Positions 3,619-40,507 of a stretch of 64,000 nt of DNA are shown piece by piece. The position numbers were made by a program, and so were the translations under genes. The number at the start of each line of letters is the position of its first letter. The first letter of the stretch is position 1. The notes under the pieces were generated by a model. The model was not told where the DNA came from, did not search any database, and worked only from the letters and a program-made list of their open reading frames with translations. This DNA is from Escherichia phage JLBYU40: the sequence record NC_105514.1, one strand, 5' to 3'.

Positions 3619-4026
3619 TTATTCGCCTGCGGCTTGTTTCACTTCATCGGCAACGCCTAACAGTTGCGCTACGGCGTCCAGCGTTTCAAGTTTTGCACTT
3701 TCCAGACTTGCCAGATCGTCGGCGTCTTTAATAATGCCGGAATCGATAGCATGTTTAGCAATAACGCGCACGTAATGCGCTTTGCGGATTGAGCTACCGC
3801 CGCCAACTTTACGCGGCTTATCGCTTTTCTGATACGCTTTTGCGCTGGTCAATTTTGACCGAACGGATACGGGAGAAGCCGCGCCAACTGCTTTTGCAAT
3901 TTCTTTTAAACCGTCGCTATTTGCGAAATCTAAACCGTTTTCATTGATTAACTGCTGGTACATAGAAACAGCTTTCTGAGTGTTTTCTTCATTCCATGAG
4001 AATTTTGCGGTTTTAACGTTAGTCAT
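3619..4026 (-). CDS. A2: pre-early A2-like protein
   Basis: 135 aa; synteny downstream of A1-like gene; strong hairpin terminator follows at 3583-3609. Confidence 0.45.
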   Translation of the reverse strand: MTNVKTAKFSWNEENTQKAVSMYQQLINENGLDFANSDGLKEIAKAVGAASPVSVRSKLTSAKAYQKSDKPRKVGGGSSIRKAHYVRVIAKHAIDSGIIKDADDLASLESAKLETLDAVAQLLGVADEVKQAAGE

Positions 4027-4124
4027 GGTAAAAACTCCTATTAGTTTAATTTAAGGGATAAGATTAACATAATGTTAATCATTATATTCCCCATATTTCA
4101 GAGGAATATAAAGTTAACACTAAA

Positions 4125-4376
4125 TTATAAAACAGCTTCCCATTTTTCGTTGCGTTGAACAACCTTTACAACGTCGCCGGATTTAACGCGAACGCTAAAA
4201 ACGGTTTTGCCGTTGTTACTACGTTCATTTTCAGCGTATACCGCGTCGATTGTATCAAACGGCATAAGCGCCGCACCTTTAATACGTTCGGCTTTTCCGG
4301 TTAATTCATCCGTTTTAGTAACGAAAGGAATAAAAACGGATTGACCAATTTTTGGCGCGGTAATAACGTTTTTCAT
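4125..4376 (-). CDS. hypothetical protein
   Basis: 83 aa ORF. Confidence 0.4.
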   Translation of the reverse strand: MKNVITAPKIGQSVFIPFVTKTDELTGKAERIKGAALMPFDTIDAVYAENERSNNGKTVFSVRVKSGDVVKVVQRNEKWEAVL

Positions 4377-4412
4377 AGTATAAACTCCGAGTTATTTGGT
4401 GGATTGTTCCGC

Positions 4413-4439
4413 ATTACCTGCTGGAAAGTAGCAGGTAAT
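4413..4439. terminator. intergenic hairpin
   Basis: 10-bp stem ATTACCTGCT/AGCAGGTAAT with 7-nt loop. Confidence 0.4.
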
Positions 4440-4574
4440 AAGTAACAATCCGCTCGCCAGTATAATCGATTTAAAGAACTCCACGTAGGCCGCTATATCC
4501 CAGTTAGGGGGCGGGATGCATTATGGTAAGCACCGACCGTCAAATTTTATCAAGTTATCGCTCTTATCGAACTG

Positions 4575-33610: not shown

Positions 33611-33688
33611 TGGCGGTTCCTGCTGGATTCGAACCAGCAACCCTCAACTTAACAAGATGCCGCTCTAACCAATTAGAGCTAAGGAACC
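33611..33688 (-). tRNA. tRNA-Asn (GTT)
   Basis: perfect acceptor and T-arm, CCA; anticodon loop TTGTTAA but stem has two mismatches. Confidence 0.45.
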
Positions 33689-34183
33689 ATATAAGTCAGA
33701 ACTAGAGTTAATACGTTCTAGATATTTACTAAGATCTCTAGAATTTATACTAAACCACTCATGTTCTTTTAAATCTTTGAAATACTGGTGAATTAGTTTT
33801 TCACCTTTTCGTTTGTCAAACCAAAAAGACCAATGCTCTAACTTATAATCCCTATAAGGGGAATAAGTCTGATATTGAGCTAATCTCTCTTTTGGATTTT
33901 GACTCATACCTATTTTATACTGATTTTTCCATGCAGGATTACTAATACAGTATACAAAACCTTCAGAAATAGGAAGTTTATTTTCCTGCTTAAACTTTAT
34001 AAAGGAAAGTGCAGCAAGTTTTCTCGAATACATAGTATTTGTATTCTTTTTGGTATTACCATTGGTTCCTGAAAGATTTATATATTCTTCCATAAATCTT
34101 TGGATTAGTTCTGCGGTTATATAGAAGGGCTCATTAGTAACAATACCTTTCTTTACCAAACTATCAAAAACTCTTGTATGCAC
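33665..34183 (-). CDS. T5orf172-domain (GIY-YIG-like) protein
   Basis: 172 aa; GFVYCISNP...YKIGMSQNPKERLAQY resembles the T5orf172 motif; 3' end overlaps tRNA-Asn by ~24 nt. Confidence 0.55.
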   Translation of the reverse strand: MHTRVFDSLVKKGIVTNEPFYITAELIQRFMEEYINLSGTNGNTKKNTNTMYSRKLAALSFIKFKQENKLPISEGFVYCISNPAWKNQYKIGMSQNPKERLAQYQTYSPYRDYKLEHWSFWFDKRKGEKLIHQYFKDLKEHEWFSINSRDLSKYLERINSSSDLYGSLALIG

Positions 34184-34888: not shown

Positions 34889-34979
34889 TGGTGTTGGATG
34901 ATGGAGTCGAACCACCCGAGACCCTTCCGAGTCGGCAGATTTACAGTCTGCTTCGCTACCTCTACGATACTAATCCAAC
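34889..34979 (-). tRNA. tRNA-Tyr (GTA), type II
   Basis: anticodon arm GCAGACTGTAAATCTGC, long variable arm, CCA. Confidence 0.65.
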
Positions 34980-35107: not shown

Positions 35108-35383
35108 TTAGTCGAACTTAGGAGTGACAGTTAAGGAGAACGGAAGTTCGAAAACTTCTTCGCCCTCATTACTAACGGTAACTACACGACCTTTAAGTTC
35201 AGACATTAAAATATCAATATCAGCTTTTGCATCTGGAGCCATGCCAGCTTCAATACATTTAGCTTTAACTTCCGGTAAAAGCTCTACGTTATAGAGATAG
35301 AGCCACTCAATCTCACCTTCCCAGTCTTCCCAGGATTTGCAGATTGCACTTTCAATACCAGTTGCTACAACACGATTTTGCAT
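35108..35383 (-). CDS. hypothetical acidic protein
   Basis: 91 aa ORF with early promoter upstream. Confidence 0.45.
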   Translation of the reverse strand: MQNRVVATGIESAICKSWEDWEGEIEWLYLYNVELLPEVKAKCIEAGMAPDAKADIDILMSELKGRVVTVSNEGEEVFELPFSLTVTPKFD

Positions 35384-35473: not shown

Positions 35474-35680
35474 CTAAACTCCAGATTTTTCGGCCAAGTC
35501 TAGACTAATAAGAGTTATAGCCATAATTGCTGCACCGTGTTCTTTTTCTCCGGTGTTTTTAGCAGAGTCTATAATATCCTTAATCTGTTCGTAATAACTT
35601 TTTACTTCTTGTTCAATGCCTGCCTCGGCTATCATGCCTTTAGCCATGAATCGTTGCATGGTAATTTCAGGATTAGCCAT
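35474..35680 (-). CDS. hypothetical protein
   Basis: 68 aa ORF. Confidence 0.4.
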   Translation of the reverse strand: MANPEITMQRFMAKGMIAEAGIEQEVKSYYEQIKDIIDSAKNTGEKEHGAAIMAITLISLDLAEKSGV

Positions 35681-35855
35681 GTTGTTTCTCCAGTTTCATT
35701 TTTAATAGTTTACAGATGAAATCAACGTCTTCATCTGTGCCTAAGTCTCTATCCTCAAGGGTCGCCTTGAAGTTTTTCGTCAATTCCATGAGGATGACTT
35801 CCCTAGAACGACGTGTTGGCGGAGGTGGATGTCTATACATCTTATTTCCTTAATT

Positions 35856-36148: not shown

Positions 36149-36226
36149 TGGTGGCTCCCCGAGGATTCGAACCTACGTACCTTCCGGTTATGAGCCGGGT
36201 GCTCATACCATATGAGCTTGAGAACC
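36149..36226 (-). tRNA. tRNA (anticodon CAT; Met, fMet or Ile2)
   Basis: acceptor with two G-U pairs, D-arm GCTC/GAGC, anticodon loop CTCATAA, CCA. Confidence 0.5.
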
Positions 36227-36232
36227 AAAATC

Positions 36233-36321
36233 TGGCGGAAGAAGTGGGAATCGAACCCACAAGGCTATATTTCAAACCGACAGATTAGCAATCTGCTGCA
36301 ATACCGTTATGCTATTCTTCC
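36233..36321 (-). tRNA. tRNA-Ser (GCT), type II
   Basis: perfect acceptor, anticodon stem GCAGA/TCTGT, loop TTGCTAA, long variable arm, CCA. Confidence 0.6.
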
Positions 36322-36342
36322 GAATTTATAAGATATATTATA

Positions 36343-36862
36343 TTAGAAATTTAGCTTCATAGCAAGAAAATTTTTCAAGTTTTCGGTAGACATCTCATCT
36401 ACATCTACAGGAGAAACAAAGCCGTTTAATTTTCTAGCAAATTTTTCACCATCGGGATCATTGTCTCCAACAGCTACCAATTTAAAAGGTAGTAATTTCA
36501 GTTGCTTTAATAACGCTTTTCCTGGAGAAGAACCCAACATTGCTAGGGCTGGATAACCAGCGTTATGTAACGCAACTGCCTTAAATACAGATTCAGCAAT
36601 CAATACTACTTTTTCATCTCCATTGAGAGTTTCTAGTCCCCATACACACTGGGTAGTAGAATAAGTAAAGTATTTAGCTTCAAAGGGGCACTTACCATGA
36701 CCTTTTGGAGCAGAAGGATTATAAGTTTGATAGCCCCTCAACATCCCAGAGAAGTCATACAACGGGACTGTTAGCCATCCTTCTGGACTTAACCAGCAAT
36801 GATATTTATCTGTATCAAATCCCCTAGATAAGAGGTGCTGTGTTAGCTCATCAACATTCATA
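36343..36862 (-). CDS. Toprim-domain protein
   Basis: 173 aa from the Met at 36862 beside an early promoter; IAES...VAVGDNDPDGEKFA resembles the Toprim E + DxD signature. Confidence 0.45.
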
Positions 36863-37036
36863 TTTGGTTCCTCTCTCAAATTTATAGATATATTATACAG
36901 AGAATTTAGCATTCAAGCAATCAAATTTTTTAACTTTTTAGAGGAAAATCATAGGGCGCTTAAGGGTAACAGATAAGTGGTGAGGACCAAAATTTGTGAC
37001 CCCACTAAAAATCCGGGGGCAATTTTTAAAGACCCC

Positions 37037-37065: not shown

Positions 37066-37127
37066 ATATGTTATGGATGAGTGATCAAAGAGACACACAT
37101 TTTCTATATACTAGGAGGTGTCAAAAA

Positions 37128-38114
37128 ATGACAGAAGAAGTAGCTAAGAGTCCTGAGACCGTCGCTAGCGTTGCAGCAGAACTGCACCGTCACGAGGAAT
37201 CAGATAAGAAAAAGTGGGAGAAGGTCAGAGCCTACGAAGAAAAACATCGTGAACACGATGATGAAGAAGATGACGATGATGAACATTGTCATAAATATGG
37301 AAAACATAAAATGCAAGAACCAGTAAACGTATTCACTAGTGGCTTCCCTGGCCTACTGGGTGGTTACCCAGCAAACGCAGGTGCTTTCGGTGGTGAAGGT
37401 ATGGGACTATTCGGAGCTATCCTAATCGGTGCTCTATTAACAGGTGGATTCGGTGGTTTCGGTGGATTCGGTGGACGTGGTGTAGTTGGTGAAGGTACCG
37501 CAGTTGATGCAGTACTTCAGAACCAAGATACCGCTAGTATTCTAGCAGCTATTAACACTACTCGTACAGAAGCTAATCAGGGTACTGGGGCTGTGTTAAG
37601 CGCAGTTAACAATGGTTTTAGCCAGACATCCCAAAACCAGAGCCGTGATACTCAGTCTGTACTAACTACGATTTATGGTACAGGTGCTAATCTGTCTAAT
37701 CAGATCTGCCAGGAAACTCGCAACGTTATTCAGGGTCAGTTCGATCTTTCTCGCCAGATTGATCAATCTTTCGCAGCTAACCAGATAGCTCGTGCACAAG
37801 ATAAATTTGATTCTGCACAGATCGCTTTCCAGCAGACTTTACAAACTAATAACCAGTTTGCCGCTGTTCAGGCTCAGATGTGTGCTAACCAGAACTCTCT
37901 GGAACGTCAGATCGCTGAATGTTGCTGTGAACTTCAGACTGCGATCGCTGGTGTAACTACTGCGCGTATCCAGGATGAGTTAGATGCATGTCGCCTACGT
38001 GAGGCAATCGCTGCGGGTAATGGTGCTAACGATCAGGTAATTAATCAAATCGCTGTAAGTCTTGGTGCAATCACTCAGACTCTGGCTGGTCTGCAGGCTA
38101 AACTGCCGGCTTAA
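37128..38114 (+). CDS. glycine-zipper membrane protein with acidic/His-rich N-terminus and Q/N-rich C-terminus
   Basis: 328 aa from ATG 37128 (RBS TAGGAGGTG); GLFGAILIGALLTGGFGGFGGFGG segment; CCC motif; GC visibly above flanks. Confidence 0.55.
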   Translation: MTEEVAKSPETVASVAAELHRHEESDKKKWEKVRAYEEKHREHDDEEDDDDEHCHKYGKHKMQEPVNVFTSGFPGLLGGYPANAGAFGGEGMGLFGAILIGALLTGGFGGFGGFGGRGVVGEGTAVDAVLQNQDTASILAAINTTRTEANQGTGAVLSAVNNGFSQTSQNQSRDTQSVLTTIYGTGANLSNQICQETRNVIQGQFDLSRQIDQSFAANQIARAQDKFDSAQIAFQQTLQTNNQFAAVQAQMCANQNSLERQIAECCCELQTAIAGVTTARIQDELDACRLREAIAAGNGANDQVINQIAVSLGAITQTLAGLQAKLPA

Positions 38115-38135: not shown

Positions 38136-38552
38136 ATGAGTAAATATGGTTTTGTAAATAACGGACTTAATCAAAGTATGGGCTCCCAGCAGCCCATTCC
38201 GGGTCTGGATAACCCCTACTTACAACAATTGCAACAGCGTTTAGCAGAAGCGCAACAGATGCAGCAACAACTCCAGCAAAACCCTGGAAGTGTGAGTCCT
38301 ATGCAAATGATGCAGCAAATGAGCGGGCAGTCGCAAATGCCTCAACAAATGCAGCAACAGGTGCCTCAGCAGCAAGTTCAGCAACAAACCCAACAACCGC
38401 AGGTTTCTGCGGAAGGACAGGCAGTACTAGCCCTTTTCGAAGACTTCGCAAAGACAGAGGATGGGAAACAGCTTGTATCACTTATGGGTAAGTTTAATAG
38501 CTTCTGCCAAAGCCAGGTTGCAAAAGCTCAAAATAGTGGTAATAACTCCTAA
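38136..38552 (+). CDS. glutamine-rich low-complexity protein
   Basis: 138 aa; RBS GGGGAGGAG; long Q/M/P-rich stretch. Confidence 0.5.
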   Translation: MSKYGFVNNGLNQSMGSQQPIPGLDNPYLQQLQQRLAEAQQMQQQLQQNPGSVSPMQMMQQMSGQSQMPQQMQQQVPQQQVQQQTQQPQVSAEGQAVLALFEDFAKTEDGKQLVSLMGKFNSFCQSQVAKAQNSGNNS

Positions 38553-40435: not shown

Positions 40436-40507
40436 TACCGACCGTAGGATTCGAACCTACATCTTCCACCAGTTACGGCTTGATAATACCAATTATACTA
40501 GGACGGC
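40436..40507 (-). tRNA. tRNA, anticodon unresolved
   Basis: perfect T-arm, acceptor with one U-U mismatch, no encoded CCA; no convincing anticodon stem by eye. Confidence 0.3.

Follow-up and report, generated by a model that had tools for sequence, protein, structure and literature searches.

The Rad orthologue of Escherichia phage JLBYU40: a stand-alone DnaG-type primase core with a probable anti-retron role

Coding sequence and upstream signals

In this study, we analysed a 64,000-nucleotide stretch of Escherichia phage JLBYU40 (NC_105514.1), referred to below as the window, and in it a minus-strand open reading frame (ORF) that is almost certainly Rad, the retron anti-defence gene of the T5 family. 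The window comes from a T5-like phage, and the DNA of this region is 95-97.5% identical to that of many Salmonella and Escherichia T5-like phages (Demerecviridae). An earlier note, made from the letters of the window alone, had placed the ORF at 36343-36862 and counted 173 amino acids. The ORF exists, but its upper end is 36861, one base lower, and the product has 172 amino acids. Both the ORF list and the sequence put the ATG start at 36861-36859. The mechanical ORF list also gave an alternative reading of 189 amino acids that begins at an ATG at 36912. This upstream ATG falls between the -35 element TTGCTT (36920-36915) and the -10 element TATAAT (36897-36892) of a promoter-like site. The 172-residue length is that of the T5 annotation of T5.076, and the starts of the homologues coincide with the ATG at 36861, which is preceded by a Shine-Dalgarno-like sequence (Table 1).

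In T5, the promoter P15a is annotated immediately upstream of T5.076, P15b lies across its stop codon, tRNA-Ser(GCU) follows 21 nt past the stop, and the upstream neighbour is divergent. The gene order of the window is the same, with tRNA-Ser(GCU) downstream of Rad and a divergent T5.077-like gene upstream. The gene was found where Rad is known to lie: in the "anti-defence island", a deletable region rich in tRNA genes, beside tRNA-Ser(GCU) and not far from tRNA-Tyr. A consensus promoter scan missed the site at the P15a position, because its -35 hexamer matches at only 3 of 6 positions. The site at the P15b position overlaps the Rad stop codon and is directed into tRNA-Ser(GCU). The two sites bracket the Rad gene and are nearly identical, each reading TTGCT[TA], a 17-nt spacer, TATAAT and then ATATCT.TAAAT. 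An early promoter of its own would drive the Rad gene, which would be the first gene of a tRNA transcription unit within the deletable, tRNA-rich region.

Identity and published function

The protein was 97% identical to T5.076 (YP_006904.1) over 172 of 172 residues, with six substitutions, a figure that refers to T5.076 and not to ORF75 of phage SP15 itself. It was 46% identical to a Privateervirus homologue, and tblastn covered at least 80% of the protein length in 470 phage records. Synonyms of Rad are T5.076 (NC_005859), ORF071 (AY587007) and ORF75 (phage SP15). The 2004 annotation named T5.076 "DNA primase" because of its Toprim domain, with a note of a match to the Toprim InterPro entry.

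Retron evasion by the T5-like phage SP15 was mapped to ORF75, which was named Rad, in a 2023 preprint (10.1101/2023.03.15.532788). There, Rad is described as a "primase/helicase and TOPRIM/RNase domain" protein, and its gene lies within a tRNA-rich island of about 8 kb that is deleted in T5n and SP15m. Rad neutralised the retrons Ec67, Ec78, Ec83, Ec48 and Se72, its T5 and Proteus Privateer homologues were active, and T7 gained the function once the Rad gene was inserted. The peer-reviewed version (PMC11555353) kept ORF75 as the determinant for evading Eco2 (Ec67) and Eco7 (Ec78). It left the function of Rad to be characterised later and stated that the mechanism cannot yet be determined. The BF23 genome paper equated the T5 Toprim "primase" ORF with Rad and reported its loss from BF23, and later retron papers mention Rad as an anti-defence protein only.

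The residues mutated in the preprint, R13, P33, I88, D135 and E156, are all present in the window protein at those positions in the 172-residue numbering. The length of 189 amino acids given for Rad in the preprint corresponds to the form that starts at ATG 36912, whereas its residue numbering fits the 172-residue form. We consider an anti-retron role of Rad in this phage to be very likely. The gene is already known and named, and the finding re-discovers an annotated gene. To the published description we add that the protein comprises both subdomains of a DnaG primase core, complete but lacking the zinc ribbon, and is not a generic Toprim or RNase domain. We also add that Rad was never the sole primase-like gene in three lineages checked, and that it recurs beside, or fused to, enzymes of tRNA ends.

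Table 1. Features of the Rad locus and nearby tRNA genes; positions are those of the window.
Feature	Position	Strand	Details
Rad / T5.076 orthologue, coding sequence	36343-36861	minus	172 amino acids plus TAA stop (36343-36345); ORF list and sequence
N-terminal catalytic subdomain, DnaG type	36616-36861	minus	residues 1-82
Toprim domain	36346-36615	minus	residues 83-172; Pfam Toprim_2, Toprim, Toprim_4
Shine-Dalgarno-like sequence GAGAGAGGAA	36868-36877	minus	ends 6 nt upstream of ATG 36861; core GAGG 36873-36870, 8 nt upstream; read from sequence
Promoter-like site TTGCTT, 17-nt spacer, TATAAT	36892-36920	minus	A-rich stretch upstream; position of annotated T5 P15a
Promoter-like site TTGCTA, 17-nt spacer, TATAAT	36337-36365	minus	position of annotated T5 P15b; promoter scan and T5 annotation
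tRNA-Ser(GCU)	36233-36321	minus	tRNA scan; downstream of Rad
tRNA-Tyr	34889-34979	minus	tRNA scan; near Rad

Domain architecture and fold

The earlier note had recognised a Toprim domain from the motifs IAES and VAVGDNDPDG. Both motifs are present, with E90 and D133/D135 (36465-36457), and Pfam Toprim_2, PHROG 849, AlphaFold and Foldseek agreed on the domain well beyond chance. The Pfam Toprim_2 match was borderline (E-value 1.4e-4, barely above the gathering score). PHROG 849 ("DNA primase") matched with an E-value of 6.7e-61, covering only profile positions 141-337 of 435. The AlphaFold2 model was confident (pLDDT, the predicted local distance difference test score, 88.9). Structure prediction, which the note had proposed as a check, returned a Toprim fold and not the absence of one. 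The acidic residues of the domain are E90 (36594-36592), D133 (36465-36463), D135 (36459-36457), D153 (36405-36403) and E156 (36396-36394).

The same note had held that no primase polymerase domain is attached. This proved incorrect, as residues 1 to about 82 form the N-terminal catalytic subdomain of DnaG-type primases. A search of PDB sequences with the family profile gave only spurious matches to ribosomal protein L4 (E-value about 1), so that a fold search was needed. The best PDB matches by Foldseek were DnaG RNA-polymerase domains, the T7 gp4 primase, Twinkle and T4 gp61 (E-values down to 8e-7); these primase cores were the best matches of the whole protein. On the Aquifex DnaG RNA-polymerase domain, 162 of the 172 residues superposed. 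With a profile of 87 family members, residues 28-171 aligned to residues 127-286 of T5's own primase (hhalign probability 96.6%, E-value 6.7e-10). This alignment spans the FP..D..G hairpin, the (K/R)Y motif, the Toprim Glu, the DxD and the third acidic motif. Family-conserved residues of the N-terminal subdomain are H9, L10, R13, G43, Y44, Q45, Y47, P49, K53, K/R63, Y64, T66, W74, G75 and E77.

Several parts of a complete primase were missing. No Zn_ribbon_DnaG match was found by Pfam in Rad even at E-values up to 10, and T5.121, the T5 primase, has one; nor was Pfam DNAG_N matched in Rad. The first residues of Rad already belong to the catalytic core, and its only cysteines, C22, C58 and C72, form no CHC2 pattern. 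In the model, Rad stops one helix past the Toprim domain, so that the C-terminal helical subdomain and the helicase-interaction region are absent. These results demonstrated that Rad is a stand-alone two-subdomain DnaG catalytic core, without a zinc ribbon or the parts C-terminal to Toprim.

Rad shares with the DnaG-type primases (E. coli, Aquifex and B. subtilis DnaG, T7 gp4, T4 gp61 and T5.121) both catalytic subdomains, the Toprim Glu, the DxD and the third acidic motif, and counterparts of the FPxxD..G hairpin and the (K/R)Y(L/F) motif. It differs from them in having no CHC2 zinc ribbon, C-terminal helical subdomain or helicase-binding domain, and in its very divergent sequence. It also lies outside the replication module, and its known phenotype is anti-defence, not priming. 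Archaeal DnaG of the RNA exosome and the N-terminal primase-like domain of Twinkle differ from Rad in being parts of larger machines, whereas Rad stands alone, and we found no evidence of a direct relationship of Rad to either.

Two other origins were considered and rejected. For a recent duplicate of the T5 primase, a shallow profile aligned the Toprim part only, and weakly (E-value 0.042), and the deep family profile was needed. For a split primase, with a zinc ribbon encoded upstream or an interrupted gene, the upstream genes proved to be divergent and of low complexity, and a complete primase is encoded elsewhere in T5.

Family distribution and conservation

A word-indexed homologue search gave 6 proteins only, and the family was seen through an exhaustive profile search of 1.84 billion representative proteins. 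This search returned 829 clusters at an E-value of at most 1e-3, 350 of them at 1e-10 or below, and most of the best 150 clusters were stand-alone proteins of 165-190 amino acids. A first scan of viral contigs had found only T5-like and Jersey-like loci and one Privateer-like locus. The 87-sequence alignment was too diverse for search patterns and a 31-sequence subset was used instead; the degenerate-pattern scan then found 174 relatives in IMG/VR. A scan of the same type over 185,579 species genomes gave only 6 full-length relatives, each of them located on a metagenome-assembled contig. The remaining matches in species genomes were partial, about half being limited to the Toprim region. Since so few full-length relatives were found there, and all on metagenome-assembled contigs, the Rad family is essentially phage-borne.

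Among 130 family members, E90 was conserved in 129, R13 in 126, D135 in 121, D153 in 118 and D133 in 114. K/R63-Y64 was present in essentially all members, and G43 and Y47 were also nearly invariant. In a few members the Rad core is fused to a further domain. The partners are a CCA-adding enzyme (P0073), a cytidylyltransferase-like domain, GNAT together with an Arr ADP-ribosyltransferase, a Mom or Mom-like domain, and a DUF3268 zinc finger. The zinc finger might substitute for the primase zinc ribbon that the core lacks. The fusion members besides P0073 in the representative search were P0054, P0067, P0091 and P0061.

In two genera of jumbo phages, Rad homologues were annotated as two ORFs, in Erwinia phage Special G (gp48/gp49, L007 about 3902-4511) and in Klebsiella phage FBKp24 (L126 about 3995-4496), and PHROGs has separate families for each half. 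Homology continues without a gap across the two frames after WGLE (Rad residue about 77), and the reading frame shifts by 1 nt where the N-terminal subdomain gives way to Toprim. These homologues could be products of a programmed +1 frameshift or true split enzymes.

Mechanism against retrons

Few phage inhibitors of retrons are known, and Rad is one of them. The way in which it works is relevant to the build of retrons and to how they are sensed, as well as to retron-based genome editing. Because the retrons that it blocks have unrelated effectors, its target must be a module common to retrons, that is, the reverse transcriptase (RT), the noncoding RNA (ncRNA) or the multicopy single-stranded DNA (msDNA). 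Rad alone lowered msDNA and msr-msd RNA, and not the mRNA of the RT or the effector (preprint 10.1101/2023.03.15.532788). Our overall best explanation, with a probability of roughly 60%, is that Rad, a DnaG core without a zinc ribbon, acts against retrons, likely by cleavage of the ncRNA. In this mechanism, Rad would make a Mg2+-dependent endonucleolytic cut in the structured retron ncRNA, and the cut would stop msDNA synthesis.

Cleavage of the ncRNA was judged the most likely mode because the loss of msr-msd RNA is selective and the metal-binding carboxylates are conserved throughout the family. In a family of very divergent sequences, the Toprim carboxylates are near-invariant and basic residues are conserved, which indicates, at the level of sequence, that Mg2+-dependent phosphoryl-transfer chemistry is under selection. 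Metal-dependent catalysis of RNA cleavage as the actual mechanism stays a tentative proposal, to which we give slightly less than an even chance.

Several points weigh against cleavage. The claim of RNA degradation was made in the 2023 preprint only, from quantitative polymerase chain reaction and gels and not from an in vitro nuclease assay. It was dropped from the peer-reviewed version (PMC11555353), and later mechanistic work on Rad was not found in the literature searched. In the preprint, R13E, P33T, I88T, D135H and E156H each slightly weakened Rad, and combinations abolished its activity. The single substitutions D135H, in the DxD, and E156H thus lowered activity only slightly, and only combined mutations abolished it. 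Such a mild effect is unexpected for obligatory catalysis, although overexpression could mask a partial loss. The two-subdomain structural neighbours listed were primases or Twinkle, and none is described as a nuclease. To our knowledge, no two-subdomain DnaG-type core is a nuclease.

The same mild single substitutions in Toprim speak for a non-catalytic Rad. Such a protein would bind and sequester the ncRNA, the msDNA or the RT, for example by blocking 2'-OH priming, and host nucleases would clear the unprotected RNA and DNA. The binding of single-stranded nucleic acid by DnaG-type cores also fits sequestration, as does the place of archaeal DnaG in the exosome as an RNA-binding subunit. The sole PADLOC match of Rad was to an RT-associated DnaG-like profile, "RTasDnaG-like" (DRT, defence reverse-transcriptase-associated, DnaG-like; E-value 9e-6, residues 84-145), which hints that DnaG-like proteins can partner defence RTs. 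However, the metal-binding carboxylates are near-invariant though family members share only 30-45% identity, which argues that catalysis is selected. In addition, msr-msd RNA falls and the co-transcribed RT and effector mRNA do not, and a cut is the simpler account of this. We therefore regard sequestration as unlikely, and cleavage of the ncRNA by Rad as the preferred reading.

The PADLOC match also shows DnaG-like proteins apparently on both sides of RT-based conflicts.

Genomic context of homologues

In T5-like phages, and in Novosibvirus PM135, where 16 tRNAs lie within 4 kb, Rad homologues are embedded in tRNA clusters, and the homologue of Klebsiella phage FBKp24 lies 2 kb downstream of an 8-tRNA cluster. 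In Vibrio phage F90, the homologue overlaps the end of the gene for a CCA-adding enzyme, and the same pair lies under the tblastn match in the related phages eugene and helene. A Rad homologue is directly downstream of a CCA-adding enzyme homologue in one environmental locus (L115), the CCA enzyme is 3 kb away in Synechococcus phage B23, and the homologue of Erwinia phage Special G is directly upstream of RtcB. The environmental sample comprised 80 loci, which formed 38 groups after dereplication at 90% identity, and neighbours were counted within 6 kb. Of the 38 groups, 11 had a metallophosphoesterase in this range, 8 had tRNA genes, 8 NAD-salvage genes, 7 an Rnl1-type RNA ligase and 6 an AAA_33 kinase. 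The gene immediately next to the homologue was not conserved among the environmental loci and varied (GIY-YIG, ClpP, small unknown proteins).

We then weighed whether the primary job of Rad may be the processing or repair of the ends of small structured RNAs, such as tRNA 3' or 5' ends, in concert with phage tRNAs and with a CCA-adding enzyme, RtcB or Rnl1. Retron ncRNA would then be one susceptible substrate among several, so that this account overlaps with ncRNA cleavage and does not exclude it. The recurrence of the tRNA, CCA-adding enzyme, RtcB and Rnl1 context in separate lineages speaks for it, as does the fusion of Rad to a CCA-adding enzyme. On the other hand, the neighbourhood association is descriptive, its counts having no matched random-gene control. 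Genes for tRNAs and for RNA repair are counter-defence cargo in their own right and gather in islands, and their co-location may reflect shared selection and not shared biochemistry. No tRNA or RNA-repair neighbours were found beside the homologues of Jerseyvirus, Privateervirus and Pseudomonas SYP, and Rad acts on retrons when expressed alone from a plasmid (preprint 10.1101/2023.03.15.532788). As the primary job of Rad, RNA-end processing seems to us quite improbable.

The broader view of the family as a primase core repurposed for small structured RNAs, together with the CCA-adding enzyme, RtcB, Rnl1 and phage tRNAs, and with retron ncRNA as one substrate, is somewhat less improbable and still doubtful. 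If it were true, the CCA-adding fusion and the repeated adjacency in unrelated phages would reflect a shared pathway and not mere co-location in islands. The findings on core architecture, on the second primase and on tRNA-end enzymes narrow the biochemistry that is worthwhile. The remaining interest lies in how a primase core works chemically against retrons and in its recurring tie to tRNA-end enzymes.

Two further observations concern the environmental loci. A small GIY-YIG-like gene stood directly downstream of the Rad homologue in 10 of them. The neighbourhoods of L043-L122 were rich in candidate counter-defence or stress genes, namely NAMPT and NMNAT-Nudix (NAD salvage), Rnl1, AAA_33, metallophosphoesterase, ClpP, ClpS and Hsp20.

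Relation to the replicative primase

Rad is not the replicative primase of T5, since a complete primase, T5.121, is encoded elsewhere and phages without the Rad region are viable. T5.121 (pri) has Zn_ribbon_DnaG, DNAG_N and Toprim and is located between the DnaB-like D6 helicase and the polymerase; the Rad gene is in the tRNA region and not beside the D6 helicase. The genomes of Jerseyvirus and Privateervirus with Rad homologues encode separate helicase-primases, so that in T5, Jerseyvirus and Privateervirus, the three lineages checked, Rad was never the sole primase-like gene. According to the literature, T5n, SP15m and BF23 lack the Rad region and are viable.

Rad might still serve as an accessory second DNA primase that makes RNA primers for phage replication, perhaps with a zinc ribbon supplied in trans. 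The whole-protein fold and the profile homology to DnaG-type cores would fit this, as would the label "DNA primase" in PHROG and GenBank, and in jumbo phages, stand-alone zinc ribbons are reported to accompany DnaG-like Toprim proteins (PMC7824862). However, Rad has neither zinc ribbon nor helicase-binding domain, the T5 replication module already holds a complete primase, the gene lies in a dispensable tRNA region whose natural deletions are viable, and the demonstrated phenotype is retron evasion. An accessory priming role is thus very unlikely.

Relation to other Toprim proteins

The earlier note had suggested a nuclease such as an RNase M5-like or OLD-like fragment. The nuclease part agrees with the sole experimental proposal, made in the preprint from the lowered msr-msd RNA and msDNA; the kinship with RNase M5 or OLD was not borne out. 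RNase M5 matched over about 87-105 residues, and the matches to RNase M5 and to topoisomerase Toprim domains were confined to the Toprim half of Rad. RNase M5 and the small stand-alone Toprim protein (PDB 6tg6 and 2i5r) share the Toprim fold and the metal-binding residues with Rad, and under a nuclease model RNase M5 would also resemble it as a small Toprim enzyme acting on structured RNA. In these two structures only about 87-89 residues align. RNase M5 has its Toprim domain at the N-terminus and a C-terminal RNA-binding domain, whereas Rad has a primase N-terminal subdomain and Toprim at the C-terminus.

PADLOC gave no OLD, GajA or AriB model for Rad, no OLD, Gabija or PARIS profile matched, and none of these was among the structural matches listed. 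The OLD-family nucleases (P2 OLD, GajA, PARIS AriB) have in common with Rad Toprim chemistry and a role in phage-host conflict involving tRNAs. They are defence effectors coupled to an ABC ATPase, whereas Rad is a phage counter-defence protein without an ATPase domain. Nor is the protein a fragment, as about 170-190 amino acids is the standard full length in this large phage family. The chance that Rad is a fragment of an RNase M5-like or OLD-like Toprim nuclease, which would share its Toprim fold, is practically negligible, given that it has neither the ATPase domain nor the RNase M5 C-terminal domain, that its length is the usual one of the family, and that PADLOC and the structural comparison already refute the family membership.

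Other features of the window

The window holds 22 tRNA genes according to ARAGORN and 24 according to Rfam, all on the minus strand. Two tRNA-like genes were found by Rfam and missed by ARAGORN. One, at 36152-36226 (minus), is at the T5 tRNA-Ile2(CAU) position, and the other, at 40436-40507 (minus), is in the region annotated as stable "RNAX" in T5.

Between tRNA-Tyr and Rad, three small minus-strand ORFs (35108-35383, 35474-35680 and 35673-35840) have the exact sizes of T5.072, T5.073 and T5.074. In the preprint (10.1101/2023.03.15.532788), two ORFs of the adjacent fragment jointly neutralised the retron Ec83, and phage tRNA-Tyr restored infection against Ec78/Eco7. On these grounds, tRNA-Tyr and the three-ORF stretch beside Rad are probably further anti-retron cargo.

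On the other side, the plus-strand ORF at 37068-38114, which is divergent from Rad and at the T5.077 position, encodes a low-complexity protein of 348 amino acids that is Gly-rich and Gln/Ala-rich. A second plus-strand ORF (38136-38552, 138 amino acids), at the T5.078 position and of the same length as T5.078, encodes a Gln-rich low-complexity protein. At the T5.069 position, a minus-strand ORF of 172 amino acids (33665-34183) was found, which is labelled as a T5orf172 domain protein in some relatives. About 24 nt of it overlap the 5' end of tRNA-Asn (33611-33688), an arrangement also present in T5.
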